A DNA stretch of 59,815 nt, counting the filler, from Squatina squatina (taxonomy: Eukaryota), in NCBI GenBank assembly GCA_031763465.1. It is 4 parts of 4 records of this genome, joined end to end, with 100 filler letters (N's around TTAATTAATTAA, not from the genome) between each part and the next. Parts side by side here need not be neighbours in the genome. Positions count along the whole stretch, not along the records: positions 46,749 to 59,815 come from JARFOE010000192.1; 3 more parts are not named here. One strand, written 5' to 3'. Below, piece after piece: positions 17,331-59,815 of this stretch (its first letter is position 1; the number at the start of each line of letters is the position of its first letter). The notes below the pieces were generated by a model. The model made no database searches and was not told the origin of the DNA. It was given only the letters and a program-made list of their open reading frames with translations. The position numbers were made by a program, and so were the translations under genes.

Positions 17331-17374
17331 NNNNNNNNNNNNNNNNNNNNNNNNNNNNNNNNNNNNNNNNNNNN

Positions 17375-17386
17375 TTAATTAATTAA
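17375..17386. other. Artificial scaffold-concatenation linker
   Basis: TTAATTAATTAA centred in a 100-nt N block (17331-17430), with stops in all six frames. Identical at three places in the window. Confidence 0.95.
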
Positions 17387-18715
17387 NNNNNNNNNNNNNN
17401 NNNNNNNNNNNNNNNNNNNNNNNNNNNNNNAAACCAGAAAAATCATCAAGTCCTATCACCCCAGACTACACCCATGTTCACAGGGGGAAGGGGGAAGGGA
17501 GAAGGGGGGGAGAAGTTCCCTGCATCGACAGAAATTGTCAAACATTGATTTTAATAATCCTTTCATAATAAGCAGTGAACAGTCAGAAACCATTCTGCAA
17601 GGCCATCTAGAAATATAACTGGCGTAGCCACAGAAGAAATCGAGACGTGATACTTTACATCTCCTTCAGTGCAATACAATAAAGCCGGGAGGGCTTTCAC
17701 ATTTAATTCAGCAGCTCATTGGCTTGCAACTGTAACTGTAAGCTACATTCACTAGAGGAGTTCTAACTGTGGGAACAGTAATATCAGCAGATTGTNNNNN
17801 NNNNNGATTGTTGATAATTTGTATTAATTCCTGTTTGTAGCATCCATTCTAGGATGCATATAGTGACACCATTATTCCCGGCCAGAATGGAGATGATTGG
17901 GTAATCCCCGGTTAATCACTGCTGCCTGCACTGCCTGAACAAGACTATAAATCTGCTTTTATACTTGTTTTCTTTTCATTTGAATTCTGGAAGTCTTAGG
18001 TTTGTGAGTTGGCTCCCAGTGTTTACACTGTTTCATCCGAGTCTACCAGTCTCCTGCCACTCTATGGAAAACAGATTAACCGCGTAAATGTCAAGAGTGG
18101 AAACACTGATAACAAATTCTGAATGAAAAAGCCAATATAAAAGAATTGTAAATTTTCACCTACTTTAGCAGCCAAGTGGGTTTTTTTGTGGTCCTTTAAT
18201 CACTGATTCCCAAAAGATTAGGCTTAAAAATACAATTCTACTATTTATAAATCATATATAGTAACCCATAAAGATCACAGCAACTGATAAGCTGATTTTA
18301 TAAGCAGAAACCAAAATCTGCAACCACAGTGATATCCAAGTCAGTAATGACGAATCACTCACCGCTCTTTCTGATAGGTTCAGTGTTGGCAGGTGCAAAG
18401 CACGGGTGTGAGATGTCTTCCAATCCACAGCCATTACATTACCATAGTTATCAGTCAGTGCATTCCAAATCCTGGAGAGAAAACAGATGCATCAACAGAA
18501 TGACAATGAGATAAGTGACTGTCCACAATCTGGCAGAAATTCAACTTTGCCTCAAGCGCACAATGCAACGTTCGATCCAGCGCAACAATGTCTCAGTCAT
18601 AATCTTATACAAGTANNNNNNNNNNNNNNNNNNNNNNNNNNNNNNNNNNNNNNNNNNNNNNNNNNNNNNNNNNNNNNNNNNNNNNNNNNNNNNNNNNNNN
18701 NNNNNNNNNNNNNNN

Positions 18716-21040: not shown

Positions 21041-21429
21041 AGTCAAGTCTAAACAAGGGAGTGTCAACCAGAAAATATAAATTAGTATTAAATGATGTAC
21101 AGAAAACAAAATAAACATTGGGAAATACAGATGGGATTAAGGGAGAGAGACAAAAGAGGCAGACAGTAAACTTAAAATAAATATTGATTTTTTTTACATC
21201 TCCAATACTAATNNNNNNNNNNNNNNNNNNNNNNNNNNNNNNNNNNNNNNNNNNNNNNNNNNNNNNNNNNNNNNNNNNNNNNNNNNNNNNNNNNNNNNNN
21301 NNNNNNNNNNNNATATGCCACAAAATTATTTTATTTAATGTCTTTGAGGTGAGACTCCATTTTTAAATTTGTGCTTTAAGGGCATATTTTTCTGCCCTTC
21401 TCGATACAATGATTTTTTTCAATGAGTTT

Positions 21430-22165
21430 CATCCCTCTCCCCTTTTTTGAATAAGTGTGTAACAATCCTCCAGTCCTCTGAAAGCACTCCCATATCCAAG
21501 GAGAATTGTGGCCAGAGGTTCTGCTATCTCCACTCTTCCTTCAGCAAACTAGGTTACATCCCATCTGGACCAGGTGACTTGTTAACTTTGAATGATGCCA
21601 ACCTATTTAGCATCTCCTTTCTATCCATTTTTGTGCTATTCAACATCTTTATTCCCTCCTCCTCTACTGCAACATTAACTTCATCAGCTTCTGTTATGAA
21701 GACAAATTCAAAGTACTCATTCAGTACCTCAGTCATACCCTCTGCCTCCACAAGAAGGTTTCCTTCTTTGTCCCTAATCAGCCCCACCATTTCTTTAACT
21801 ATCCTTTTACTTTTTATATGTTTATTAAAGATTTTTGAGTTTCCTTTTATGTTACCCGCTAAACTTTTCTCATATTCTCCTTTTGCCCTTCTTACGTCCT
21901 ATTGTCAATTTCCTCCTGCACTCTCTGTATTCTGCCTGGTGTCCTTCTGTATTCTGTACCTGACATTTGTCATAAATCTCCTTTTTCTCTTTTATTTTAA
22001 CCTTTATTTCCTCTGTCTTCCAGGGAGCTCTAGTTTTGGATGCCCCACCTTAACTCCTTATAAGAGTAGGCTTGGTTTACACCGGAAGTATTTCCGCCTT
22101 GAAGGCCTGCCATTTCTCATTTACAGTTTTCCTGGTCAATGTTTGTTTCCAGTTCATCTGTGCTA
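21430..22165 (-). mobile_element. CR1 LINE ORF2 fragment (between endonuclease and RT)
   Basis: The minus strand encodes VGLIRDKEGNLLVEAEGMTEVLNEYF...FKVNKSPGPDGM, the typical CR1 KSPGPDG region. Confidence 0.85.
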
Positions 22166-23046
22166 GCTTTAATTACCCACCTAAATTTGGAGGAAGTGGA
22201 GTGGCTTGTGAGTGTCCTGGTGATACTGAGCTTACCCAACCTCACCCATCAGCCTGGATGAAAAAGGCCAATAGCAAATGTTGATGGCTGGCATATCTTG
22301 CTGATAAACACAATGAACTGGTTTAATACATCAGTCTTGATGCAAAACAGCATTACTGCATGATTATGCTGACAGATGGGACTGGATCAGGTCTGCCCAC
22401 CGTGTGCATCATAATGCACCAAACATGCACAGATTGCGAGCTCTGATTTTGATGTTGGCCTACCTGGGTATGAGAACCAGACAGTAGTGTAAATACAGGT
22501 GAGAGGCAAACATAGGTTGGTTTAAACATAACCATGCTTTACAGATGTCCCTGTCTATAATAGATTAGTTTGCACATGTCTGAATGTATCTGACATGTTT
22601 ATTATTTTGTTGTTATTCACTGTCTTTGAAAAGTGACATTTTTACAAATCATCTTCTTGTGTTTATCAAACATTGTAAAGCAGTGACACAAATCACATTA
22701 AAATGTCTCATTTCATTGCAAAAACATCATATTATTTGCATGTGATCTAATTGTGATGGAAATTATGCACGATTGTTTGTGCTGTCTCACTTCCCAGCAG
22801 TAAGATATTATGGGGTAGGTTTTCACATTTACCAGTGGAGCAGAGGGGGGAAATTGGGTGGGTCAGAGAAACACATCTGTTATAGAACAACAATAGTAAC
22901 CACTTGTATTTATATAGCGCCTTTAACGTAGTAAAACATCTCAAGGNNNNNNNNNNNNNNNNNNNNNNNNNNNNNNNNNNNNNNNNNNNNNNNNNNNNNN
23001 NNNNNNNNNNNNNNNNNNNNNNNNNNNNNNNNNNNNNNNNNNNNNN

Positions 23047-23624: not shown

Positions 23625-23855
23625 AGTATTATCATGGATAGAGGATTGGGTAATGGACAGAAAACAGAGAGTAGGGATAAATGGGTCTTTTCCAGGTTGG
23701 CTGGGTGTAACTAGTGGGGTGCCGCAAGGCTCAGTACTGGCGCCTCAGCTATTTACAATCTATATTAATGACCTAGATGAAGGGACCAAGTGTAATGTAT
23801 CCAAGTTTGCTGACGATACAAAACTAGGTGCGGCAGTCAGCTGTGAGGAACATAA
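23625..23855 (+). mobile_element. CR1 reverse transcriptase fragment (5' part)
   Basis: WIEDWVMDRKQRVGING...SGVPQGSVLAPQLFTIYINDLD...SKFADDTKLG, with the RT motifs QGSVL and FADD. Confidence 0.9.
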
Positions 23856-24544
23856 AGGGCGAGAAATTCCTCTCCTGTTACGCCCCGTTAGCGCCTCCGA
23901 GGGGCACTCATGGGACAAAACAGGAAAGAATGGCGATGGGAGGCAGCCATCTCACCTCCCAGGGAGTTCAGCTGGGGCACAAAGGCCTTTGCGCCTGGCG
24001 AGCTAAATTCTGTGGCGGGTCGACACATGACATGACAAAGATGCACACTGCACCGCGTGACAGCAACTCCCTTTGCAGCCCATTTGCGTCCAGCGGCCAC
24101 AGCGCCGGGCAGTTACAGTGACAGCAAAACCTGTAGCTGCAGTGGCCCTCTTAAAGGGGAGGGCCGATGCGTCTGCAGCCGCCATCTTTATTTATCGGCT
24201 GACTTGATCGTCGGCCGAATGATGGCCCACAGCCGGATCGGGCCATCATCCCCTCGCCTGGCATGTTAGGCTGGCCCAGTGTCTGGCTGTGGGGTGCCAT
24301 CAGGATGGCCAGCGGCCTTCCCCTTCAAGTGTCAGTACGCTGACGTCACGCTGACGTGGTGCTGAGGCCACGCCAGCAACGGACAAGACCAGCCGCGCCA
24401 GTTCCGGCCGGGAGCGTACTGTGGGTCACCCCCGCCCCAGAACGACTAATTCTGCAGTGGGTGGGGCGGGACGGGAGCCGGTGCGAGAAATGCCGGCTCT
24501 CACCCCGTAAACACCCGAAAAAGGCGCGAATGAATTTAGGCCCC
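23856..24544. mobile_element. Harbinger-like MITE inserted into the CR1 RT
   Basis: A GC-rich block with imperfect TIRs (GGGCGAGAAATTC / GAATTTAGGCCC) and a TAA/CAA pseudo-TSD. The CR1 sequence resumes immediately after it. Confidence 0.7.
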
Positions 24545-24938
24545 CAAGAGACTGCAAAGGGATATAGATAGACTCAGTGAGTGGGCAGTAAGGTGGCAGA
24601 TGAAGTGTAATGTAGGGAAATGTGAAGTTATTCACTTCGGTAGGAAGAATTGAAAAACAGAATATTTTTTAAATGGTGAGAAACTTTAATGTTGGTGTTC
24701 AGAGAGATTTGGGGGCTCTTGTGCAAGAAACACAAAGCTAGCACGCATTTACAGCAAGGAATAAGGAAAGCAAATGGCATGCTCTCTATTTCAAGGGATT
24801 TGGAGTCTAAGAGTAAGGAAGTCTTGCTACAATTTTACAGGACTTGGTGAGACCACACCTGGAGTACTGTTCACAGTTTTGGTCTCCTTATCTGAGGAAG
24901 GACAGACTTGCCATGGAGGTGGTGCAACAAAGGTTCAC
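24545..24938 (+). mobile_element. CR1 reverse transcriptase fragment (3' continuation)
   Basis: RLQRDIDRLSEWA...KCEVIHFG...[20 protein letters not shown]. Confidence 0.9.
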
Positions 24939-26350
24939 NNNNNNNNNNNNNNNNNNNNNNNNNNNNNNNNNNNNNNNNNNNNNNNNNNNNNNNNNNNNNN
25001 NNNNNNNNNNNNNNNNNNNNNNNNNNNNNNNNNNNNNNAATTTTCCCAATGAGTGTTCTGTGAATTGTGCAGCAATTTTCTTTGACATTCTTGGACCAAG
25101 CTGCAATCCTCTCCTGTGCTGTGCAGGAAGGGTGCAAGTTATGCATTCAAATGGTACTGAGAGAGAGCCTCCAATAAGTGCTGGAGCTCTAACTCCATTT
25201 ATCATTCCAGCAGACTTCTCGCCCTTCCCGTACTGGCAGAGGCAGTTATAAAATTGAACAGATCAGAACCCTGCCATCTGGCTATTTGAAATATTATACA
25301 TGGCAATTACCAGAAGAACAATATGAGTAGCAATTTTGTAGCTGATTGGATTTACAGCTAATGGGATCCTAATGCCATTTTCCGAGAGCATAAGCTAGCC
25401 TATTGTATTACAGAAATAGTCAGCTGAAAACTAGTTATTTTGGAGCACTAATTTTAATGATTTGTGACCTATACTGAACCCTCATCTCCAGTCAGACTGT
25501 GAACGAGGCAGCAGACTTTATCTTCCCAATGCATGAAAAATTATGCTCACGGTTCAATTCAGAGAGTGGAACCTTTACCAAATAGCAGTTTTCATCCAAT
25601 TTACAGTGTACAAAGCAAAATATGGGTAATCTGGTTTAAAAGCTGCCACCTAATTCACATCTTATCGAAATTGGCAGTTGGCGATGTAGGGAAAAATGCA
25701 TTTTCATTTCCCAGTGCAAAGGTAACATATTTTAATTGTGTTCATGTAACAAACAGTTCTGGTTGTGTGTAATAGAAAAATACTGTCTCTAATGTGTAGT
25801 CCTTGTAAGGGATAATCCTGCTCCTTGTAACAGTGGGCTGCACTAGTGCCGCGCATCTCTCCAGTGATATCTTGGCCTTGCCCTCCATTATATTGCATAT
25901 TTCAGTGTTGGTCAAAGTGCTGCGACTGTGCTGAACTTGACTCAGTGGGAATGGGACTTGTGAAGCACAAACGTAATTGGTGCCAGCTTACTTTGTAGCC
26001 GCTTGTTCAACCGCAGGAGCCGACAGCTTTAGTTCTCCACAACAGGTCAGGCGAGCCAACCGGAGACAATTCAATTTACAGTTTAATCTTTTCACTTGAA
26101 GCCAGGTGCGACAACACATTATTTTGCTTTGCAGTCATTCGCCAACACTTGTCCATTCCACATTGATCCAGCTCGCATTGTTCATTGAGCGTGTGCGTGC
26201 TGTGTCCAAAGCCTCGCATTCGATACTGATGAGCCATCCACTGACTAGACATTCTAGCTTGAGCATTATTACTTCTCGATGGGACGTACAAGTATCAAGC
26301 TTAAAAAAGTATGCGATTATCTTTATGGAAGCCTGTTGGGTATAAATTAC

Positions 26351-26478
26351 CTGAGTGAGAGAGCGCCAGTCCATGTGGGCACTGCCAATATAAATGTGCT
26401 TCTTGTCCACCACCCAAAAAGAAGAATGAAGCTTGCCACCAATAATGGGAGTCATGTTGATGTACTTCACCAGTGCAC
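26351..26478 (-). CDS. PLD5-like (PLD3/4/5/7 family) phospholipase D exon with degenerate first HKD motif
   Basis: ccag|GT...CAG|gtaatt, 128 nt. Translates to (G)ALVKYINMTPIIGGKLHSSFWVVDKKHIYIGSAHMDWRSLTQ, which aligns with the PLD3/4 motif LH[TS]KFWVVD...GSANMDWRSLTQ but has K->S and N->H. Confidence 0.88.
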
Positions 26479-29400
26479 CTGGGAGTTAAACAGCCAATAA
26501 CTAGTCATCAGTTGCTACTTATCAGCATCTTCAATTGATACAGTGAAACATAGAAGACACAAGATTTCTTGCCACTGAGTCAGATGGTTGTGGGTTTGAG
26601 CAAGTTATAAAATATTATCGCGTTACATTCTTTAAAAACTGTGCATGCATAAGAGTAAAAAATACCTATCAGAAGGGCATGTTCTGAAAAAAGAAAATCT
26701 GTCAGCCCTGCACGTTCGTAGGTAATTANNNNNNNNNNNNNNNNNNNNNNNNNNNNNNNNNNNNNNNNNNNNNNNNNNNNNNNNNNNNNNNNNNNNNNNN
26801 NNNNNNNNNNNNNNNNNNNNNNNNNNNNTGTTAATGTCACTCTATTCATTCACATATTATTAAATAAATTAGTCTGTTGGTTTATAATTGGCCTGGTCAT
26901 CAGTTTTCCAGAAGATGAGATGAGATTACAGTATCCAATTCACAAGAAGTTTTCATTGTTATAGCCCCTGGGTCTTCAGACAGTATGACCTAATTGGGCA
27001 TTCCTAAGTGTAAGGGACAGGGTGTCTACTTAAGGGAAAGACCAATAATGCTGAAATAGATTATTTAGTGCAGACCAGAAATTTGTAATCGCCAGGTTTA
27101 CACTTTTAAAAAAAAAAGCTGTTGTCCTCTTAACTTCTACCTCTGGTCTATAAACATTCCACAGTCAGAGAGGGCAGGCAGATGACTTGCATTGAGGCTT
27201 TGACCAATTCTGCTCATGAGCTGCTCATTGAGAATACTCCTTCCACTTTTCTTTCCACATGAATAAATGTCCACAATCTGATTTTTGACTTTCTACAAAA
27301 CTGAGGCTACTGGACAAAACGCCATGGCAGCGTGGAGTCAAGTTGCAAGAGATTGATGGGGATCTGCAATGTCAGATAGATCAAGAGAACCCCCCAGAAC
27401 AATGGCACCCAAGGCTTTGCATTTAATATCTGTTAAGTTATCAGCCTGTATAGTTATCGACGCATCCATGAACTTATGCTCTCCTTATTGCTGGCACTGC
27501 TATACAGGTGAAGTGGGAAAAAAAAAAATCAGACCAGAAAATATAATCATTCCAACAAGTCACACACTGACGTTACAGTGTGCAAATCCATCACATAATC
27601 GGTGATGGGCTTTTAGCTTTGTAACAAACATTCTCTGTGACAAAGATCTGGGAAAAAACTTTATTTGAAACACATTAGAAATGTAAAAATACAAATGAAC
27701 ATACATAACCAAATAAAAATAAATAGAGCCAATAGTGTTCGTACAAAATCAGGAGAAAACCATATAACTGCAAAACAAAGACAATATTACAAATTACAAC
27801 ACAAATGTGTAAACACATAAATCAACACAAGAAAGTGAAGTGCTTAGCTAGCATATTTAGAAGTTGGAAAACTCATGTCATTGCTATTTACTAGAGAAAC
27901 TCTGTAGTATACCATCTCATTACTTTTCCATCTATGGGGTAAAACTGTGCTTTTGCTATTGTAATAGCTTCTAGCCAAAGAGAGAGAGTGTGAGGGAGAA
28001 AAAAAATACAGGCAACATGTGGTAGTCTCGTTATTCCTTTCTCAAAGTTTGGAGGAAAAAAAACACTTTTTAATCCACGCAATATTCAAAAGGCATTTTT
28101 CCAGCAGTATGTAAAGTTAGATTGGAAGCAATTCTATATTGCCAGCCTAATGCCTGTTCCTAGCTNNNNNNNNNNNNNNNNNNNNNNNNNNNNNNNNNNN
28201 NNNNNNNNNNNNNNNNNNNNNNNNNNNNNNNNNNNNNNNNNNNNNNNNNNNNNNNNNNNNNNNNNNNNNNNNNNNNNNNNNNNNNNNNNNNNNNNNNNNN
28301 NNNNNNNNNNNNNNNNNNNNNNNNNNNNNNNNNNNNNNNNNNNNNNNNNNNNNNNNNNNNNNNNNNNNNNNNNNNNNNNNNNNNNNNNNNNNNNNNNNNN
28401 NNNNNNNNNNNNNNNNNNNNNNNNNNNNNNNNNNNNNNNNNNNNNNNNNNNNNNNNNNNNNNNNNNNNNNNNNNNNNNNNNNNNNNNNNNNNNNNNNNNN
28501 NNNNNNNNNNNNNNNNNNNNNNNNNNNNNNNNNNNNNNNNNNNNNNNNNNNNNNNNNNNNNNNNNNNNNNNNNNNNNNNNNNNNNNNNNNNNNNNNNNNN
28601 NNNNNNNNNNNNNNNNNNNNNNNNNNNNNNNNNNNNNNNNNNNNNNNNNNNNNNNNNNNNNNNNNNNNNNNNNNNNNNNNNNNNNNNNNNNNNNNNNNNN
28701 NNNNNNNNNNNNNNNNNNNNNNNNNNNNNNNNNNNNNNNNNNNNNNNNNNNNNNNNNNNNNNNNNNNNNNNNNNNNNNNNNNNNNNNNNNNNNNNNNNNN
28801 NNNNNNNNNNNNNNNNNNNNNNNNNNNNNNNNNNNNNNNNNNNNNNNNNNNNNNNNNNNNNNNNNNNNNNNNNNNNNNNNNNNNNNNNNNNNNNNNNNNN
28901 NNNNNNNNNNNNNNNNNNNNNNNNNNNNNNNNNNNNNNNNNNNNNNNNNNNNNNNNNNNNNNNNNNNNNNNNNNNNNNNNNNNNNNNNNNNNNNNNNNNN
29001 NNNNNNNNNNNNNNNNNNNNNNNNNNNNNNNNNNNNNNNNNNNNNNNNNNNNNNNNNNNNNNNTGACTTGTTACCAATAGCTCTTGCATAACTTCTCATT
29101 TTATAACCAGGTGTAACAGGCAAAGGATTAATCTTGAGTGCAAAGAATAATTCACCCAGTTATTCAGGTTGATTCTGCTGATATTGTCAATCCTATTGAC
29201 CAATTTTACTGACACAAGAACATGACTGCACGTGAAGCACTGTCAGTCGGGAGCTGCGAGATACAGTGAGCTACTTCCAGACCAGCAACTACTGTTGTAA
29301 CAGTTCATCAGTACAGGATATGCAGGAGGTTGAGTGGATTTTCCATTTTTCACCCCTTCCTAAGAAGAAAGGTTGTCTCCACTCTCAGCCGTTCCATTCA

Positions 29401-33799: not shown

Positions 33800-34033
33800 C
33801 TAAAATATAAAACATACCAATGAGGGAATACAGGAAACAGAATACATGTCACGTTTAATTATAAATGCAACTGGAGCTAGACTTCTGTATTACATTAGAT
33901 CAAACATTACATTTTTAAAATGTTGAATAATCTCACTAGCCCTGTTGGTACTCCTAAAGATGCAAGAGGGTACCACCAAAAGATGTATANNNNNNNNNNN
34001 NNNNNNNNNNNNNNNNNNNNNNNNNNNNNNNNN

Positions 34034-34045
34034 TTAATTAATTAA
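34034..34045. other. Artificial scaffold-concatenation linker
   Basis: TTAATTAATTAA centred in a 100-nt N block (33990-34089). Confidence 0.95.
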
Positions 34046-37000
34046 NNNNNNNNNNNNNNNNNNNNNNNNNNNNNNNNNNNNNNNNNNNNGTCCACCCCAC
34101 TAAATGGGTCCTTTGCTCATTGATATGGTCTGTGGGTAGTAATGAGTTAAATGTCCATCTGAATTTCAATAAATTCTATAGATTGTGGTGTGAAGCAGCA
34201 CATTAACAGCACGAGCTTCAGTGCACTCGGGACTGCTGACCAGTCTGGTGTAGGTAAATCACCATGACATCCAGTGTGTAACTGGTGCCTGTTTTCATGT
34301 GTTCTGTCTGCCGGTGGTTTATTCATTATACTGCCCACCTGTCGCCCAGTTCTGCCTGGGCAGGTGGTGGAATCAGAGTTTGAGTCTAAGTTTTGCAGTC
34401 TATCAAAACCTTTAAGAACGCTTCCACATGAGGCACAGAAGGAAATGGAACAAAATGGCGTTCGACTTTGAAACCCAAATGTTTTGGTTTGTCTCGTGGA
34501 CATTGTTGGAGAGCCCGCTTGTACCTGACTGCCCATAGTCGGGTTTGAGGTGACCCTGGTCTGATTGTAATCTTTTTATGCAGGGATTGCCAAACAGCTG
34601 GGATCAAGCTTTGGATGGAGTTTGCATATGTGGAGCGTACTTTGCCTGCATGGCCCAGGGCTCCACTCCACAAGTGACCTGAACCTGCAAGAGCACCAGG
34701 AGGCACAAATGGGATGTTCTCCTGGTCAAGTGCACACACCTGCCTTTACACCCATCAGTGTGTGGGATAACTCATTTAGTATTTCTTAGTGATTTTTAAT
34801 AAAAGATTTAAATGTGGGTGTTTGTTTCCGTACGTGATACCTGCAGGTGGCAGGACATGGGGGTGAGACACACTCCTTTAACAGCAGGCCATCAGATCTA
34901 AAGGCAGTGTTGTCACTGAGCTTGTTCAGTGTATGGTACAAATATCAGTTTTGTGAACCTGTATTCACCAATACATCATCCAGGACAAAACTCTCTCTCC
35001 AGTCACGGCCCTCGTTTGGCAGATTCTATAGTTCAAGACTGCGACGAGTTCACTGGGCCACTATTTGCTGAAATCTGGGGACAACACTGCAAATAGTCCA
35101 TGAGCCTCAATTCATCATTTCTGCTTTCATGGCAGAACAGAAAATTGATGTGCGTGAAAATGTCTTCACCTCTTTCAACCCTTTGCTCTGCTGCTGCTAA
35201 ATCTGCATTAACCAATAATGTCAATGACACTTTAACAACCAAAAAAATCAAAGACGCTGTTGACATGTGAACATTTCATGTATGTGTTGTCTCTTCAAAT
35301 AAAAGAAGGCAAAGAATCAAGTGTGCAATTAAAATATTGTGAGCACTGATGTATAACAGCTGAAAAGTTATGTACTGCACAGTGCTACAGATAAATGAAA
35401 AGATAACATTGGACAATCTTGAAAGCAAAATCTATGTAGCTAGTTATTTCAATGGGTTTGGAAACCAATGAAACACATTTAATTCTTCACTGAAAATGGA
35501 GCCAATTAGAATACTTTCTTTAATAGTGTGATCATTTAAACATCATATATCCTACAATTGAATTTTCTACTGATTATGGCAAGACTCCCCAACCTGGCTT
35601 CAAAATGGTTATGAGATACATAATAAGGAAATATGTCTATTAACATTGGTTAGAACTTTTGCAGAAAATAACTAAAATTTATAAGTGAAGATCAAAATCA
35701 GACTACCCAATTTTTAGTGACAGATTAATTGCGATGAAGATAAAAAAGAAAAACAATCAGTAAAATAAATGCTGAACTCATGATTTGGGAGGGTAACTGG
35801 CCTTTTCTTTCATGTGAGAAAGGCTCACATAATGTGAACATACCCACAGCACTTCAAAGTTAGACAGCTTTTTTACTTGTGACTTTAAAAGCAAATTTCA
35901 CTGCCAAATGCATATTATTACCCATTTATTACATTTAAAGAAACTATTAGAAACAGGCTGAATAATACTTATATAAATGTATTTTTTATTAAAATACAAA
36001 ACTAGGTTCCCTATGAGCTTACTCTTGCTTTTTTCTGGTTTATTTTCACACCATCAGGGTAGATGTGATAAAGCAAGCAAGCACGCCATAAACTATTCGC
36101 ACATAGCTCGCATTTTCAGAGCCTGGTATCTCATTACAAATTTCTTATTCTGCTCCAGGAAGCAGATGACACCAGATAATGCCAGTTATCAGTCATTACG
36201 GNNNNNCCAGTGCCTGAAGGTCCCCGCTGTTCCTAGATTATTTTCTCCAAAGCCTGTTTTGTACAGCTGTGCCAGAGGTTTGAGCTAGCTGCTGTTCAAA
36301 TTGTTGTCCTAATGTATCAGGAGACACCAAGATTGGTAACTTAAGCTACAATAGAATATTTTATTTGTATTTTATTCAAAGCATATTTCTCTTCATAAAT
36401 TCCTTTTTAAGTTATTTGATTTAAAGCTTTCAATTAAAGCATTCATTTTTTAGGCATGCATACAATAAATGAATCTCATCAACATTAGCATGCATATTTT
36501 ATTTTCAAAGGTAGGATTGTTCAATGCAGCAATGATCCGATGTAGCTACTTAATTACAATTAACTTTTAATACAAATAATCTCACTAAAATATTTATGCG
36601 GAATCCAAGCTAAACATCCATCAACTTTCAAACTCTGATATTTAAAATAACTCTTATTAACAAACACCCACTTAACACTAGCATATTACCATATCCCATG
36701 GCTCTATTTGTAATGAATTTCATCCCCATTATTACTTTGGAACTCGTGGGAATTGTGCAGCAGTATCCAACTTTCCNNNNNNNNNNNNNNNNNNNNNNNN
36801 NNNNNNNNNNNNNNNNNNNNNNNNNNNNNNNNNNNNNNNNNNNNNNNNNNNNNNNNNNNNNNNNNNNNNNNNNNNNCAGCAATTAAACTTTCCTTTGCTT
36901 ACTTAGTAATTAGACTTTGTGGCCTTAAAGGGATACAGATCCACCTTAGCAACAAAATAAGATATAATAAATTACATGACAGACATTCCTACCCTTATAA

Positions 37001-38492
37001 GATAGCACATATTCCAACTTACCATGAGCAACAAATATAGTTCTGAAGTTTTAAATCTAGTCAGCAATAGGAAACAGTTTTTCATATATGTTCATCTGAG
37101 AAAGCAATTTTACAAATAGTAATTGCAGCCTTACCATGAACAAAGATATTCCGCTGCCCCATACCACTCCCAGCCTCACTGTTCAATAGATTGTTAGGAG
37201 GTGCTCAAAAGCAGCACTGAAGTGAGTAGATTTAACTTGAATCTTGCATTTGCAGATGGCCTGGTCTGAGATTGAATTCTGCTTTCCACATAGGGAATTG
37301 CAGGGGGAAAACCCCTTATTCCATATTTGCTCACCAACAAGCTAAGCCATTGGCAAAACACATCTGAGTATGCGCAGAATTAATTTACATTAATGTTACT
37401 TTACAGGAATAGATAATCGTGAAGTTTTGACTGAAATAATGTTTGATGTGGTACTATAAAACACAGAATTTATCATGATTGATGCACTGTTCGTTAGAAA
37501 TGTCCAGAATTTGAAACTGAAGGGGCCCCATTGTGAATTCGAATACAGTTTAGTAAATAGAACTGTCTTGAGTTTTTGTTACTGTTTTGCTCTTATGCTT
37601 TAGTAAATATTTGATGATGTAAGTTATGCGATCATAACCGCAATGACTTGGTAACGTACAAGTAGGAGAGCGGAAGAGACCCAAAGAACTGAAAAGATTT
37701 AGGTTTCCGCATTGGTAGTTCATGGTTAACTCTTAGCTGACTCTGAAGAAACCATATATTAAAAAGGTTAATCAATTTAGATTAAAATAATTCATCAAGT
37801 AAAGTTGCAGCTCAAGTTCATCTCATTAAAAAGTGAATGTGTGTATATTTTATTAATAGCCTAGTGGTGTACTCCCAAGGCAAATTGACTGGAAGAAATA
37901 ATTTACCTACAACAGAAATTAAAACCATTAATATTAGCAAGCAACAGCACGCTATGTAATATCAAACATCTTTAAAACCTCTTCACTGCATTTCACCCCC
38001 ACACGCAGACTAAATATACCAAAATCAATGGTTTGTATCAGTTTAGGTACNNNNNNNNNNNNNNNNNNNNNNNNNNNNNNNNNNNNNNNNNNNNNNNNNN
38101 NNNNNNNNNNNNNNNNNNNNNNNNNNNNNNNNNNNNNNNNNNNNNNNNNNCATCTATTGATGACTTCTAACCATCAAGATATGTGAAATAAGTAAATTAA
38201 GAGCAATTAATTTCCTATATTGTGACAGCCAGCCACAAGAAGCTTTCATTTTTTTTTGAAACTGCAAAATGGAACAAATTGATCCATACAAGAATAAAAC
38301 AGTATTCTATTGAGCCAATTCTGAATTTGTCCTTTTCAGTATTCAGCTCCATAGCCAGCTGATAAAATTCATCGACAATTTATATAGAACTGTTTTTTGT
38401 GAAGTTTACTATCATCTCATACGGTTAGTCAGTTACCATCATCAAGGAGCTGCTGCACGATAGACATTAAAGAAATAAGATAAATCTCTTAC

Positions 38493-38645
38493 CAATCTGT
38501 TTATGCGAACAAACTCTTCTGGAGTTTTGGCCCATAGTGGAAGCTCTACATCAGACACCACAGTTCCATCATCCATCACACCCAGATTGTAATTATTGGA
38601 ATTGACAAACATCTCCGGAAGATAATAAAATTCAGGAATCAGTTC
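38493..38645 (-). CDS. LRBA: LRBA BEACH-domain exon
   Basis: acag|GAA...TTG|gtaag, 153 nt. Translates to [65 protein letters not shown] favours LRBA over NBEA. Confidence 0.88.
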
Positions 38646-39021
38646 CTGTGTAAGAAATAAACAATCATCCATTTTACTAAAATAAGGGTTTAACAGCCCA
38701 ATCATCAAAATTCACACACACATTTAAGTAATGCACGAACCATCCTAATAATAGGTTATTTTAATCTGCTAAGTATGTCAAGCTTGTTAGCCACAGTAAA
38801 CTTGTTTTTGATGTACTGAAGAAATTTAAATATGGCTGTCACTATAGATTAACTTCAGTTCAATAAAGCCCAACTGGTTAAAAACTATTCATCACAAACA
38901 TATGCAATACCAGCACACTTCAATGACCAATGCATTTATAATAGTCCCGATAACCAACGCAGAATTGACAACAGTATGCTGGACAATTAGTTAGGACATC
39001 CATGACAATTTAACTAAATAA

Positions 39022-45275: not shown

Positions 45276-45496
45276 TTAAGAAAGGTCTGAAATCACCTCA
45301 TTAACTGTAAGGTCGCTTAGTTCATCCAGACTAATGTACTTGTGATGGATCTTCTCCTCCGTCACTGCCACTACCCGCACACCATGCTTGTCCTCTCCCA
45401 GCTGGCAGCCTATAGCCGAAGTCACCACCATATCCAGATTGTTGAACATTCCACCGGCGTTCCGATGGTAGTGGCCGGAGAAGACCGCTTTTACTC
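45276..45496 (-). CDS. CPPED1: Calcineurin-like phosphoesterase domain-containing 1, terminal exon
   Basis: ttttccccag|GA GTA...TAA. Translates to [73 protein letters not shown], with the metallophosphatase GHxH motif. The ORF track lists only a different frame here. Confidence 0.92.
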
Positions 45497-46692
45497 CTGG
45501 GGAAAAAAATCAAAATAATCAATCAGTCCACTGTGCAGGAAGGTCTTTTGAAATGAAAAAGATCACAGAAGATTCATCCTGGTGTCCATTACCCTTACAT
45601 AAACTGGATATTCTGCACACATGGAAATACACTGGGTATGTCAGAGAAACCGACCCATTGTTGTGCTGCATCCATATGCAATTTAATTCTGTGATTAAAA
45701 CTTACACTGAATGTAAGTGCATGAAAACACAAGAACAGTGAAATCTTCAGGTTGTTGACATTAAAAGCTTGTGTTTTTAATCGTGGTTTTGGACTGCTGT
45801 ATCCGTTGAATAGAAAAATATATTTGAGTTGAAATATACAGCTGAATCCTGTTAATGTGAATACCCTGGAGGAGATTAAAATGTTCCATTTATCACTTCA
45901 TCCTCACTAGACAAAGCACATTTACACAACACAGATTTGGAATCAATTCGTAAATAAGAACATTTTACTGTTCTTTTCGTGAAGCATTTTCTTTATAATT
46001 TCACTGAATCTGTTTCCAGAGGACAGCCTACCAGGTTCCACAAAAAACAGTGTCTGAATGCTGGGAGGTGGGGAAGCGCCTACCTTTTCCTCTTGGTCCC
46101 ATGGACAAGATTAGAGTTGCCGTGATGTGAACTGAGATTTGAATCCCATATATTCCTCATTCACCATACTGCACAATTAGAGTTTCAACTGCCTACACTT
46201 TTGTGGAGTTAATTATAGCCTAAAGCTCAGTTAAATGGAATTTATTTCTTAAATATGAAGCCTTCTCCTCAGTTGGTTAGTGGCAATTCCCATGTTATAA
46301 CCAGGTATGCAATTTCCAGTCACTGGAACATCATCAATGGTATTTAAAAGAAAATCAAGCTGAATGGAACATATCCGAGACAGTGCATATTTTGTTAGAT
46401 GTCGCGCTTTGATTTTATAGTCCAGTGGCCTGAGACCTGCTGGATAACAACAAGTATTTATAAAGTGCCTTTAATATAATAAAATGTCTCAAAGTGCTTC
46501 ACAGGAGTATTATAAGACAAAAAAGATGACATCAAGCCACATAAGGAGAAATTAGAGTGGTTAAATACAATTTATGTCTTAAATATGAAGCCTTATCATC
46601 AGTTGGTTAGTGGTAATTCCCATTTTATAACCATATATGTACTTTCCANNNNNNNNNNNNNNNNNNNNNNNNNNNNNNNNNNNNNNNNNNNN

Positions 46693-46704
46693 TTAATTAA
46701 TTAA
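46693..46704. other. Artificial scaffold-concatenation linker
   Basis: TTAATTAATTAA centred in a 100-nt N block (46649-46748). Confidence 0.95.
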
Positions 46705-47969
46705 NNNNNNNNNNNNNNNNNNNNNNNNNNNNNNNNNNNNNNNNNNNNCTGACATACTTTATGTTAGTAAACTTAAGAACTCAGCAGTGTATGTCAGAGT
46801 TATTAGTTTTCTGCTGTTATGCTCTTGTAATGGGAAAATGTTGCATCTTCTATTATATTGGATGTATATAGTGTTTTATTTTTGACCAGATAATTGTTCA
46901 TTCTACCTGCAGGTAGTTATTGTAGCTTTTAATCTTGCAGCAGTATCTTTAAATTTGATCTACCCTCGAATAATTAGCTGATTTTGAGAGTACGAGGAAA
47001 CATGGGGCAGACTCGTGGAAGGTTGAACAACATACAAATTTTTCTCCAAAGTGCAATTTCCAATTTCCACCTAGATGATCTATGTTTTTGGACATTCTAC
47101 ACATAAGACAATGGTAAATAAAGATCCAAAAATCTGCGCAGAGGTTCATCTGAGCACAAGTATTGAGATGTGCTCACCGGGAACCCCAACTGTTGATTCC
47201 CGTGTATCTTCTGGGGTCAGGGGGAAGAATTTTTATTTACCGCTGCAATGGTAGACACCCGCACCAGTATGTCTAAAGTACCCTTCACTTTAGCAAGGAG
47301 ACCAGAAAATCTGACAGAAATTCCTGGGCCTGGGGTGGCGAGGGTGGGGTGGGGGCGGCGTGGGGAGGTGATGGGGGCAGAGGCAGGCAATGCTGCAGGG
47401 TAGTGGAGGGAAAATGCTTTTTATAACAACAATGGTTCTGCTGACATGAATTCATTGCTGCTGAAGGTGTACATTAATAATGGACATATTTGTTGGAATG
47501 TTGGGTATTGCACAGTCAAACTGAGTGAATAATATAACAGAAAAGCTGGAATTCTCTCTAAACTTCCAAATTACTAAGTTGTCAAATGTGTTGGTTAAAA
47601 TGAAAGTGGTCAGGAACAGAGTTTTTTTATGTAGAATAGTCCACAGTGATTTTAACAGATAGCTATTCTCAGCAGGAACTAAACACAAACCTGTTTTGTT
47701 TCATTTAAGCAATGATTCAGCAGTCTATGAATGAGACTCTGCCAGCCACAAAAATACAGAGGAATATTCCAGCACTGAACTAGACACTCACAGAATTATC
47801 TATCTTCCCTGCTTTCAACATTTCGAGCATAGTATTAATGACTTAAAAGGGCACAAAAAGCAGCAATCATTACTGATAAATGGGCCACTGCATTTTAACC
47901 ATTTTTCCAGCTTAATTTTATTTTTTCTCCATTTGGTGAAATTACTAAATTGCCTGTTGACAGCAAACA

Positions 47970-48170: not shown

Positions 48171-48291
48171 TAGGATGCCAGGCATTAAACCNNNNNNNNN
48201 NNNNNNNNNNNNNNNNNNNNNNNNNNNNNNNNNNNNNNNNNNNNNNNNNNNNNNNNNNNNNNNNNNNNNNNNNNNNNNNNNNNNNNNNNNN

Positions 48292-48442
48292 TTCCCCATT
48301 ATAAATTCCCACGTTTCTGACTGTAAGGGACCTACATTTGTCTTCAGTAATCTTTTTCTCTTCACATATCTATAGAAGATTTTACAGTCAGTTTTTATGC
48401 TCCCTGCAAGCTAACTCTCATACTCTATTTTCTCCTTCTTAA
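48292..48442 (-). mobile_element. 5'-truncated CR1 ORF2 fragment abutting a MALRD1-like exon
   Basis: IKKEKIEYES*LAGSIKTDCKIFYRYVKRKRLLKTNVGPLQSETWEFIMG, the typical CR1 K-x-FY-x-Y...VGPL region. Confidence 0.85.
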
Positions 48443-48519
48443 TAAATCCAGTTGTCCTCCTTGTTCCCAGTCACTGACCACATCAACAGGGGCATTCCGT
48501 GCTCTCCAACACTGTATAC
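48439..48519 (-). pseudogene. MALRD1: MALRD1-like MAM exon truncated by CR1, with premature stop
   Basis: ttccag|GTA TAC...TGG ATT TAT TAA gives VYSVGEHGMPLLMWSVTGNKEDNWIY*, a MAM W-x-x-x-G-N-x-x-x-x-W motif. The rest of the domain is replaced by CR1 sequence. Confidence 0.7.
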
Positions 48520-50317
48520 CTGGAAGAGAGAAATATTTCCCAAAACATTACCGAGCTGACAGAAAGCAGAATGGATCTTCTCATTTTTCATTTTTGGGTC
48601 ACTGGTTATAGTTTTTCTTGCTTTGGAGCTACTTGCTTCAGAAATAAGCTTTTCTGAAACATCAAAAGTCACATTTTATGGGAAGTGTCAACCTGGAAGT
48701 TGTGAATCTGAACACTTACCCGTTTTACTTTTGTGTCAGACCAACACGTATGAATGGACGGACTCCAAGAAAAGATAATACAATTGCTATGTATTGCTTT
48801 ATTGCTTATTTTAGGGAAGCCAACATTTCAAACAGATATTGTTTACTTTTAAACATTAATCCCAAGATTGCAAGAATCCGCTCCTGATAAGAGTCTCACT
48901 TGACACAAGCACAGATCAGTGAGCTGGCCAAGGAGCTTAGTGCATCCAATTTGTGGCACCCCAATATTTCAGTCATTAAAATCAATAGAAATAGAAATAG
49001 TTTACCTCATCACAAAAGAAAATCAGCCTGTGACTTATACGCAAGTAGGTTCTAAGGTCCAGAAAAATAGACTTCTGAATTTATTTTGAAATAAAATTTA
49101 CTGATATTAGGAACTTGAGACAGAGGGTAGTTTTTCTAGAGTTCTACAGTGCAGCCAGCACATATCGGAAAATTGCGGTTGATGCCCATGAATTTTTGAT
49201 ACACCTTGAAAGCAGACAAGGGGGGCCCAATTCGTTTGTGCGGAGTAGGGAGCAGTAGCTCTGAAAAAAAGGTCCCATTAGCACCGGCGCCGAGCTGCTG
49301 CTAAACACTGCCGCATTTCTGGCCACGACGCTGCTGAGCTGGATGACCACCTCATCTGTGGCACTGGAGGGGCGCTGTTTGCAATGCTACATGCAACTGG
49401 TCTGAAGGCTTCCTCACCTCCCTGGGCAATGTGGCCCTTAAAAACAATGGGGAGTTTGCCTTTCGATCTCTGCGCTGATCTATGTTGCAGCAGAGATGCA
49501 AACAGTGTGATGTCTGGTACAGGGCATGCCCATCGTGGCCAACACTTATGCCACCCTGCAATGGGTAATTCTTGGCTCTAGGGCGACCAATCAGTAATGA
49601 AAACGTCTGAAATGAAAAGCTGCCAAATTTGACCTCCGANNNNNNNNNNNNNNNNNNNNNNNNNNNNNNNNNNNNNNNNNNNNNNNNNNNNNNNNNNNNN
49701 NNNNNNNNNNNNNNNNNNNNNNNNNNNNNNNNNNNNNNNTGGGGGATTGGGGGGATAGGGGATGGAGGGGAAGGGGGATGGGAGCCTGGGGGAAGGGGAA
49801 TTGGGGGATGGAGGATGGAGGATGGAGGGGTATTGGGGGATGGGGGATGGATGGGGAATCACAGCCAAGTCTCACTCAACATCCATTTTCAGTCCTGGGT
49901 TACTAGATACGGAGATTTGTAATCCTGCTCTAGCTGTGATCAGTTGACTCAGTACAGACAAGGTACGAAATCTTTGATGTTCCCAGTTTGCAGAATCATG
50001 TGGTGCATTTACCTCATTAAAATGCTGGTCAGTGCCACAAAGTAGGAAAGCAGCCGGCAGCCTTGGATTAAGTCACAGCTACAGTAACAGTAAAATAGCC
50101 GTTACCAATCAGTAATGGCTAGGAAAAGTAAACATAATATACTTGGACATTGATTTGCTTTCATTTTAAGAAAAGGTTAATTGCAGAAAATTATACATGT
50201 GCTATAATGGATTATTCTTCACTTAAAGTGAGTGAATGGAAACAAATACTTTATTCCCTTAGAACTATAATTTGCTCTGAAACACTCTTCTGTGGTTGAT
50301 AAAGCATGTTTATTTAC

Positions 50318-50482
50318 CAGGTGTGTGATCAGTTACCGGGCCAATTCCTGCAGTGATGCTTTTGTTTCCTATAGTCCAGTCAAAGTCGTCATCTTTGTTT
50401 TGCATTAAGCTACAGTTAGTGAACCACGACCTTTCTGTTGGACCATCAAAGCTGCAGCTTCCTGGAATGTTAACAAATTGTG
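50318..50482 (-). CDS. MALRD1: MALRD1-like exon (start of a MAM domain)
   Basis: ttcag|CA...CCTG|gtaaat, 165 nt, phase 1/1. Translates to QFVNIPGSCSFDGPTERSWFTNCSLMQNKDDDFDWTIGNKSITAGIGPVTDHTP. Confidence 0.85.
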
Positions 50483-52023: not shown

Positions 52024-52223
52024 TGCAGATGACTGGATGCTCATCAGAATGATCAGCACAGTCATTGGTGAAGTCACAGNNNNNNNNNNTTGTTGGCAAA
52101 TGAATACTCATCAGATTTGCACTGTCTGTCTGGGATCAGAAGAGGAGCACAATTTTCAAAGGACATGTCATCGACTGCAATATCACCCATGTAACTCACA
52201 CCTCGCTTGGCTCTTAAGAAAAC
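52024..52223 (-). CDS. MALRD1: MALRD1-like exon (end of MAM plus LDLa), with a 10-N gap inside
   Basis: tttacag|GTT...TGCA|gtaagt. Translates to VFLRAKRGVSYMGDIAVDDMSFENCAPLLIPDRQCKSDEYSFAN[gap]CDFTNDCADHSDEHPVIC, which matches MALRD1 RAKRGISYIGDVAVDDISF. Confidence 0.87.
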
Positions 52224-54215: not shown

Positions 54216-56244
54216 ATTCCAGATACTTGTCGATACTGTGCGTATTGAATCATTTGATCATATCTTGACAGATAATCATGTATGCGATACACCATTACAG
54301 GACACTGTTAGAAATAGTTGGAAAGGGATCAATAATGATAGATTAAGATCAGGTAGCATTTGAGCAACTGACAATGGAAAGAGCTGCTGATATACTTATC
54401 AAAATTACTAATGAATGAAGCAATTTTCTTTTCTTTGTTTAAGATGGCACTTTGTAAATGACACTACAGAACTCCATTTGTTCCCTTCAGGCAAGATTAA
54501 GGAGGGAATGTACAAATGCAATTGACCTGAAAATGTATGTGCCCGGGGATTTTTAATAGTAGTTAGGTAAGAAAGATTTGCATTTATGTAGCATCTTATC
54601 ATGTCATCAGGATGCCCAAAGTGCTTCACAATCAATTAATTACTTTTGTCGTTGTTATGTGGGCAAGCAGTGCAGTGAATTTGCACATAACAAGGTCCTG
54701 CAGCTAACAAAAAATAGATTACATGACTGAATTGCCCTCCAATTGCACAGTACAACAAGTTACTGCTAAACTGAAGTTACCAGGTATTTCCCGTGTGAAA
54801 TGTATTTTAAAAGCATATTAATAATGTGCACAGATTTGAAAATTAAGGAATTAGTTAGATCAGTAAGATTAACAGGATTTACTCAGGTTTATCTTGTAGT
54901 TACTGTGGATGTCCTTTACCCTTGATGTATTTTTTCTAAGGGGAAAGGGCATGCGTAATCATACAGCTATTCACACTGAAATAATAAGACATTGAGCCAC
55001 AATTTGCTATTACTGGAACAAAGGCAATTTCAAATAAATCTAATCGGGAGCAGACTGACTCAGTTCAAAGAAACATTAAAGCTGAGTTTCTGCTCACATC
55101 CTGACACATTCCAAGAAACCTTCTCACCTCATGCTCCCAGGTCCAAACATCCTATTACCAATCACTGGTCATCCATTGCTACCTCATCCCAATACCCCCT
55201 GCCATTGCTACACAATTCTATGACCTCCCCTCCCACACATCGGGACTCCCATCCCACTTCTATCCACGAGGGTCTACCTCAAATTCCCACAGCTCAGATC
55301 TTCAGTACGACTACATTCCACAATCTCATTCCCAGTACTACCGCATCACAAAATAACCTCCAGTATTGCTGAATCCCACAAATCCACACTCTTTTCTCCT
55401 ACATCCTGACACCACCCTCCCAAAACTACCTCACCTCACCCACTAATTGTCTACCTGTGACCCAGACAAGTTTATTTCACTTTACTCCGTACCTTTACCC
55501 ATGCCATTTTCTCCTTCATCACCACTCTAACCTCTTCACATTTGCATCTCATAACTTCTTTTGCACACACATCAGACCCTAAACTTCCTTGTTCTAACAA
55601 TTGCTCTAACGCGTATTGGGAGAAAAGGATGTAGCACGTCAATATTTCAAAACTCCAGTATTGAAGCACAAGTGAGAGAGGATATAAAAAAGGAAAGTGC
55701 AGACACAGAATCACTTTAGGTAGAATTTATAGACAGTAACAGAGGTAAGCTATAGAACCCCAGGAGTAGGGTGACAGCCCTGATCAGGAACGGTGGGGTG
55801 AAATAAGAAAGGCAAATAGTAAGGGCCGATAGTTATTTAAGATTTTAACTTAACAGAAATTGGCTATGACAGTGGTGTCTCTACTGGTAAGGTACGGAAA
55901 GGATTTCGAGAGTTAATGGAAGACTGTTTTATGGCTCCATTTGTAAAAGAGCCAACCAGGAGAGACAACATCTTGGATTNNNNNNNNNNNNNNNNNNNNN
56001 NNNNNNNNNNNNNNNNNNNNNNNNNNNNNNNNNNNNNNNNNNNNNNNNNNNNNNNNNNNNNNNNNNNNNNNNNNNNNNNTAGCACTTCAGCCAAGATTAA
56101 TTATCATTGTTAGCAAATAGTGATTGAGCTAACGAATGATAAATCTGGACATTTATGTATATGTATGTAAAATAATTTATACAAATATTCTTTTCAAGTT
56201 AAACTTGGATGAGCTAACAACATCCATTCTCAAGTTCCACTTAC

Positions 56245-56612
56245 CACAGTTGTCTTCATCAGACCCATCACCGCAGTCATCCACGAGGTCACATACTTGT
56301 AGCCGGTCAATGCAAGCTCTGGTTTCTTCACACCAAAACCGCTTTGCGCCTTCGCAGTTCTCTACAGCTTGTGGGAGGGAGCAGTTGGCAAACACAATGT
56401 CATCCACCGCTGCCACACCATCATAGATGCTCAGGCTGACTTTCACCAGTGTAAGATGGAAGGGTCGAGTTAGACGCCCAAGTTGCACTGAGCCTTGCAG
56501 CCACTGATTGTTTTGAGTGTTGTAAGTCCGCCAGACCACAGTGTGACTTTGGACCCCCTCAACCTCCAGGTACATTTTTGCTGCTCCTGCAGCCTGTCCA
56601 TAATTATAGTAC
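56245..56612 (-). CDS. MALRD1: MALRD1-like exon (MAM C-terminal half plus LDLa)
   Basis: ctacag|G TAC...TGT G|gtaag, 368 nt, open frame. Translates to YYNYGQAAGAAKMYLE...QLGRLTRPFHLTLVKVSLSIYDGVAAVDDIVFANC...FWCEETRACIDRLQVCDLVDDCGDGSDEDNC, a strong match to MALRD1. Confidence 0.92.
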
Positions 56613-57534: not shown

Positions 57535-57681
57535 CTTGGTTGGTATTAGTTGTGTGGTCTGTAATAGGTAATCCTGACCCTGAGGATGTTTGGGCCTGTC
57601 CTCTAACCCACACAGAACCATCTGAGTTCAGCTGCTTCCAGTCACAGAAACTGGACTCAAAGCTGCACAAGCTATAATTTG
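57535..57681 (-). CDS. MALRD1: MALRD1-like exon (start of a MAM domain)
   Basis: ttccag|CA AAT...CAAG|gtgagt, 147 nt. Translates to NYSLCSFESSFCDWKQLNSDGSVWVRGQAQTSSGSGLPITDHTTNTNQ. Confidence 0.88.
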
Positions 57682-58253: not shown

Positions 58254-58461
58254 AGCAGACAGCTTTTTCTTCATCTGCACCATCACAGCAGTCAGCCTGG
58301 AAGTTGCAAACTGAATTCATAGGAATGCAGTGACCTGTTCCACAAGTGAATGTTGAAGGTGGGCAGGATTCTGGTAAAAGTGCCTCTTCACAGTCGTTGA
58401 ATCGCAAACTATCCACGGCCAAGAACCCTACTTTGCTTTTAATAGCACCTACAAATGTAAC
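58254..58461 (-). CDS. MALRD1: MALRD1-like exon (end of MAM plus LDLa)
   Basis: ctacag|GTT...TGC T|gtagg, 208 nt. Translates to VTFVGAIKSKVGFLAVDSLRFNDCEE...CPPSTFTCGTGHCIPMNSVCNFQADCCDGADEEKAVC. The phase joins the next exon. Confidence 0.88.
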
Positions 58462-59195: not shown

Positions 59196-59415
59196 CGCTA
59201 TACTCAAGTGTGGTCTATGTAACCTGTCCTCCTAAGTTAACCCTTTTAGCCCAGGCATCATTCTGGTAAATCTGTGCTGCGCCCCCTCTAAGGCCAATAT
59301 ACCTTCCCTGAGATATAATGCCCAGAACTGACGCAGTACTCTAAATGGGGTCTAACTAGAGCTTTATATGACTGTAATGTAACATTCACTCCTTTGTATT
59401 CTAGTCCCCTTTGAG
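59196..59415 (-). mobile_element. CR1 RT fragment
   Basis: The minus strand reads [42 protein letters not shown]. Confidence 0.75.
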
Positions 59416-59815
59416 ATGTTGGGTTTCCAGTTTTAAGATTCATGTCAATGCTAAAATGCTAACAGATGTTAATTACAATGGAATGGAAAGTGTACGAGAA
59501 ATGCATAACAGAATGCACTAAGTGCACACAATCAAGCAGCAACATCAAACTTTTAGCACTGTAAATATTTCTATGACTAAATTAAGACTACCTGAAATTG
59601 ACTCAGGCATGAAAGCAGCCGCACTTCCCCTTTGTTCCATTGGTTTCCGGTTGGTGTCTGTTCTTCCCACAATATTATTTCTCCCTGGAGGTTACAGCAT
59701 GAAAATATTTGAAATCAAAGTAATGGCATATTATTAAACATGAGGTTAATTCACATTTTCTTCAGCCTTGCTCTGCTAGCTTGCCAATCAGTTTTATTAT
59801 TTTTATATCTACATG

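Follow-up and report, generated by a model that had tools for sequence, protein, structure and literature searches.

A MALRD1 exon joined to a CR1 fragment in Squatina squatina: a candidate gene loss that is likely an artefact of library or assembly

MALRD1 exons in a thinly covered assembly

The window analysed here is a 59,815-nt stretch of the Squatina squatina genome assembly GCA_031763465.1, made up of four scaffolds joined by linkers and broken into 43 contigs with a median length of 1196 bp, most splits being 100-N gaps. The scaffold that begins at 46749 carries seven exons of MALRD1 on the minus strand in colinear order, the junction exon described below and six upstream of it. A preliminary description of this DNA had placed that exon correctly within the order of the gene, but had counted only five others. 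The top named hits are MALRD1 proteins, at 80-84% identity in elasmobranchs, and identity to elasmobranch orthologs amounts to 78-83% across 262 shared columns. Five of the upstream exons are open with intact AG/GT sites: those at 59592..59684, located by ortholog alignment, at 58254..58461 (with an LDLa repeat), 57535..57681 and 56245..56612 (the end of a MAM domain together with LDLa), these three located by ortholog and domain hits, and at 50318..50482, located by ortholog alignment with a splice-site check. The remaining one, at 52024..52223, was aligned to orthologs and is interrupted by a 10-N gap at 52080-52089. MAM (PF00629) and LDLa (PF00057) domains score above cutoff in three exons and alternate along the gene. 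Elasmobranch MALRD1 genes are alike in these colinear MAM and LDLa exons, the difference being that one exon is cut short in the present assembly.

The exons visible in the window cover 415 residues, or about 21% of the protein, with about 79% of the coding sequence lying outside. The 10-N hole falls inside a single-copy exon, in which it leaves 9 residues missing, and points to thin coverage. About 10 bp from this gap, the codon at 52100-52098 (minus) encodes Phe where 12 of 12 orthologs have a Cys of the LDLa repeat, most simply and likely a base error near a contig end, with a real second lesion as the alternative. A separate observation concerns the predicted Rhinoraja MALRD1 (P0003), whose residues 1817-1837 follow the membrane anchor, are absent from Mustelus and Pristis MALRD1, and match a repeat-like piece of the window at 59211-59273, possibly a repeat absorbed into that gene model.

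The junction exon, the CR1 fragment and their likeness

The seventh exon is present as a 5' part of 26 codons (48442..48519, minus) that belongs to a MAM domain and is opened by an acceptor AG at 48521-48520. Its translation, VYSVGEHG...GNKEDNWIY, is 85% identical to residues 1240-1266 of Mustelus MALRD1 (P0004) and 81% identical to Pristis. Directly after these codons the sequence passes without a gap into a retrotransposon fragment, and the join creates a TAA in the MALRD1 frame (48439..48441, minus). In orthologs the exon continues, for example as ANVIVSNNYPF in Mustelus, and it is whole in all four elasmobranch orthologs that cover it. Its 3' half is absent from the window, in which a search at up to 3 mismatches gave 0 matches and tblastn with 69 orthologs gave no hit. 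Since large stretches between exons are likewise missing from the window, however, the lost half carries little weight. In 4 of 4 elasmobranch orthologs a further 275-371 residues, including a hydrophobic segment, lie beyond the join, and truncation of the protein before its transmembrane end, as initially proposed, would indeed follow if the join were real; the join itself is likely an artefact.

The fragment beyond the join (48292..48441, minus) is 150 bp long and was identified by protein homology as a decayed piece of a non-LTR ORF2, for which we take the clade name CR1 to apply. Read from 48441 to 48292, it has seven hits among ORF2 proteins (76-83% identity, E values 3e-16 to 6e-14), in the same orientation as the exon. 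Domain scans of two ORF2 relatives found the endonuclease in P0080 and RVT_1 in P0076, and the fragment corresponds to the linker between endonuclease and reverse transcriptase. Compared with all six references, 6 of its 49 residues are private, including a stop at 48413-48411; these references come from other species and carry 0-5 private changes each, so that part of the count may reflect subfamily difference or read error. Such private residues, with a stop among them, indicate that the fragment does not represent an active element, and it is not the young, near-intact copy that a retrotransposed insertion into an undecayed gene would call for. At the DNA level, the fragment had 0 matches among metagenome contigs in public collections, and no locus could be confirmed for it in metagenome, viral or genome contigs.

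The fragment reaches the end of its contig, where it directly adjoins a 100-N scaffold gap (48192..48291), and the lesion thus lies 150 bp from a gap, whereas a gene loss should be clear of assembly gaps. In short-read assemblies it is ordinary for contigs to end within repeats. Another CR1-like hit, at 55829-55978 (plus), also terminates a contig, at 55979. A single contig nevertheless crosses a CR1 copy that is older and about 750 bp long (21425-22169, minus), and a decayed CR1 therefore need not terminate a contig. With a further piece at 23626-23835 (plus), the CR1-like sequences elsewhere in the window are of differing age.

The last 21 bp of the exon before the join (48442..48462, minus) themselves resemble the CR1 sequence that would lie just upstream of this point, with the exon version kept. 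CR1 proteins align without a gap up to 48461, 20 bp into the exon, where RRTTGFI faces RRTKGLI, and a CR1 contig of one sequencing run (X1) covers 48428-48462, mismatching at 4 of 35 positions. As the places of these mismatches are not given, the match within the tract is 17 or 18 of 21. Run X1, which agrees with the window at 131 of 131 bases over 49050-49180, is from this species or one very close to it, and might not constitute evidence independent of the assembly. We estimated chance levels against a CR1 stand-in of 1313 bp (window 23626-24938; CR1 identity is demonstrated for its first 210 bp): 18/21 was reached by 3 of 32,430 sampled 21-mers and 17/21 by 15 of them, which, scaled to a 4-kb element, corresponds to a chance of about 1 in 700-3,500 for a match of 17-18/21. 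This rarity argues that the join was selected by likeness, and an overlap at the join, as a chimeric fragment or misjoin would have it, is present. The main sequence features set out in the preliminary description are therefore confirmed, namely the MAM exon with its acceptor, the gapless switch to CR1 ORF2 in the same orientation, the in-frame TAA, the missing remainder of the exon within the window and the likeness of the exon tail to CR1.

These data bear directly on the possibility that target-primed reverse transcription placed a 5'-truncated CR1 in the exon, its 5' end annealing to the target flank, in which case the second half of the exon would lie past the CR1 3' end, accompanied by a 3-5 bp duplication. 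The shared orientation, the start in the middle of ORF2 and the retention of the target version of the tract are what an annealing model predicts, and a study of 5'-truncated CR1/L2 insertions (PMC4245944) describes microhomology joining and 3-5 bp duplications for inserts of the L2/CR1 type, with a similar mid-ORF2 start and target-side version. The shark join differs from those cases in the 21-bp length of its likeness, in the decay of the copy, and in that the 3' end and any target duplication would fall beyond the contig end. A site chosen by the endonuclease would carry a 17-18/21 likeness only about once in 700-3,500 for a 4-kb element, and the stop and five other private changes would demand either an old insertion, ruled out by the intact exons described below, or trans mobilisation of a dead copy. 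We consider such an insertion very unlikely. Both the decay of the CR1 piece and the extent of the likeness speak against the microhomology-guided 5' joining of a new element that had been proposed for this locus.

Conservation of the gene and evidence from related species

The MALRD1 coding sequence in the window (1245 nt, the visible ~21% of the whole and a sample in which conserved exons are favoured for placement) contains, the join aside, 0 stops and 0 frameshifts, and canonical dinucleotides are found at 13 of 13 splice sites of the visible exons. We simulated neutral decay with an indel rate taken from the intron alignment between the window and a related species, relative B (six indels, five of them not a multiple of three), and obtained 0 lesion-free replicates in 4000 at 4% decay and again at 5.5%. 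When indels were left out, lesion-free replicates made up 4.8% at 4% and 1.4% at 5.5%; with indels at lower levels of decay, they made up 1.8% at 2% and 15% at 1%. Over the 262 shared columns, the protein branch of the window MALRD1 is the shortest among five elasmobranchs (0.044 vs 0.161 for Mustelus), and 3 of the 262 columns show a private change at an otherwise invariant position, compared with 3-7 in the four other elasmobranchs. The cross-elasmobranch comparison that had been suggested as a check on gene loss therefore gives, at the protein level, an exon that is intact in the other species but no sign of relaxed selection in this one. Further lesions, as would be expected of a unitary pseudogene, come down to the single Cys-to-Phe change near a gap.

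A CR1 copy resident in the exon since its insertion would entail some 4-5% decay of MALRD1, and the exons show otherwise. An old, fixed loss of the gene in the shark lineage, dated by the roughly 5% decay of the CR1, could appeal to the decayed fragment and to the one Cys-to-Phe change, but is contradicted by the uninterrupted frames, the complete set of splice sites, the lack of lesion-free replicates at 4-5.5% and the shortest protein branch; we regard it as extremely unlikely. Old loss of MALRD1 is accordingly rejected, and a very recent one, with decay of 1-2%, is still compatible with these data.

Seven sequencing runs were listed as matching, the best of them sharing at most 0.12 of sampled words and none being an RNA run. 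Four of these (X1, X2, X6 and X7) were aligned to 48428-49180; the other three, X3-X5, derive from one sample with X2. The most informative alignment comes from relative B (run X2), of which a 2403-bp contig follows the window from 49180 to exactly 48442 and then continues into an intact exon, reading ANVIVSNNYP as in Mustelus (translated by hand). The two sequences differ by 55 mismatches over 739 bp and are about 8% apart in the intron. Within the 78 bp of the exon there are at least 2 differences, by hand translation one silent and one a His-to-Arg change at which the window agrees with Mustelus. The likeness to CR1 is ancestral: relative B has no difference from the window in 48442-48499 among the 40 of 55 differences listed, and the rays Pristis and Rhinoraja share the residues GNKEDNWIY. 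On these same grounds, we rejected a gene conversion in which CR1 had overwritten the exon tail.

The alignment with relative B also speaks to the idea that this contig holds a stray second copy of the exon together with the intron upstream of it, the working exon lying elsewhere in the genome. A second copy elsewhere is conceivable, but the alignment to the single contig of relative B spans 739 bp and shows stronger conservation in the exon than in the intron, making a duplicate highly improbable. In the shark itself, the junction is covered by 0 of the 4 aligned runs: X1 matches 49050-49180 but nothing over the exon. The remaining two of the four, X6 and X7, of each of which about 6 in 100 was read, yielded 2 partial reads and 0 reads, respectively, none at the exon.

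Origin of the join and remaining features of the window

Taken together, we consider that the exon-CR1 join is probably a chimeric library fragment or a misjoin in a thinly covered assembly. In such a case, an exon strand ending at the ...NWIY codons would pair with a genomic CR1 copy over the tract that matches at 17-18 of 21 bases, and would be extended on the CR1 template, or a contig end would be extended by reads of this kind; with no intact read bridging the spot, the chimeric path would become the contig end and die after 150 bp, or one read length. We favour this origin because CR1 templates are abundant, because a lone fragment can end a contig where coverage is thin, and because the path dies after one read length. 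The position of the join 150 bp from a contig end, the undecayed exons, the intact exon in relative B and the decayed CR1 partner all support it. Treiber and Waddell (2017, PMC5553932) describe amplification chimeras from MDA libraries that mimic transposon insertions and carry complementary overlaps of 2-21 nt. The shark join resembles these in that a complementary overlap links unique sequence to the interior of a repeat and no element end is present. It differs in that the published chimeras were seen in reads of MDA-amplified fly DNA, whereas here the join lies in an assembly contig and has an imperfect overlap, and the library may have been of another kind. The homology-guided joining of a sequence with a repeat is a mechanism of known kind.

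Counting against an artefact is that a real, recent rearrangement would yield the identical sequence. Most likely a deletion, it would have joined the exon tail to an old CR1 lying downstream on the same strand, guided by the 21-bp likeness through annealing or a template switch during repair, and would have removed the exon donor to leave a null allele that is heterozygous or, alternatively, was fixed not long ago. It would explain the homology-selected join, the decayed partner and the undecayed exons equally well, and a null allele could persist, as mice deficient in Malrd1 are viable and have raised bile acids (PMC8804323). No supporting read occurs among the four aligned runs, however, none of which covers the junction in this species. 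A downstream CR1 with this segment in the same orientation is also required, and in the contig of relative B only 30 unaligned letters are visible. Per genome, moreover, such events are by our rough, uncomputed judgement rarer than chimeras in a thin assembly. We therefore hold a recent rearrangement to be possible but rather unlikely, and the stronger proposal that one shark lineage recently fixed a null MALRD1 by recombination between the exon and an old CR1 at the ancestral 21-bp likeness, before the gene could decay, to be improbable. The weighing of artefact against germline event is itself a judgement rather than a computed prior.

With an artefactual join as the preferred reading, we infer an in vitro or in silico origin for the join and a MALRD1 that is functional in this species. 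An assembly chimera, which the preliminary description had itself named as the case that would refute it, is the likeliest reading, and gene loss stands as a candidate only, the feature being likely an artefact: the other exons are undecayed, and a missing half-exon is expected in an assembly of this kind. The proposed connection with bile alcohols fares no better, given that all four elasmobranch orthologs covering the exon keep it whole.

The role of MALRD1 in FGF15/19 signalling and bile-acid control is known from mouse and human data (PMC8804323). Validated losses of bile-pathway genes in mammals, namely CYP8B1, ACOX2 and SLC27A5, are described in PMC6296402 as backed by 20 or more reads, with the ancestral allele absent, selection relaxed and no assembly gap involved. 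The shark MALRD1 is comparable in being a bile-related gene with a lesion that may inactivate it, but shows none of these four features. Searches by title or the start of abstracts found no report of MALRD1 loss in the literature on MALRD1 gene loss or on MALRD1 in sharks, and PMC7694183 names scymnol in its reference list only. PMC11101090 has passages on a case in the dog, either a translocation or a misassembly. A real join would deprive the allele of the exon donor and end the protein ahead of the final LDLa repeats and the membrane anchor, likely making it null. If the join were also fixed, a natural MALRD1 (Diet1) null would exist in a shark that uses bile alcohols, and one could test whether the MALRD1-FGF19 feedback known from the mouse is needed in a bile-alcohol vertebrate. 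The likely lesson is one of caution: in a thin assembly, an exon joined to a repeat through an imperfect likeness close to a contig end looks like a gene loss.

Elsewhere in the window, the three linkers (17331-17430, 33990-34089 and 46649-46748) are identical, each consisting of 44 N, 12 AT bases and 44 N. They separate scaffolds, and genes flanking a linker are therefore not genomic neighbours. An exon at 38445-38711 (minus) encodes part of a BEACH domain closest to LRBA and reads LPLWAK where LRBA and neurobeachin have LPPWAK, either a variant or an error. The exon at 45279-45509 (minus), without a Pfam hit above cutoff, is one that we take to be CPPED1-like. It shares a single 12.5-kb scaffold with the LRBA-like exon, and if its identity is right, unrelated genes have been joined there. 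Finally, an exon at 26138-26485 (minus) contains a phospholipase D motif (PF00614).
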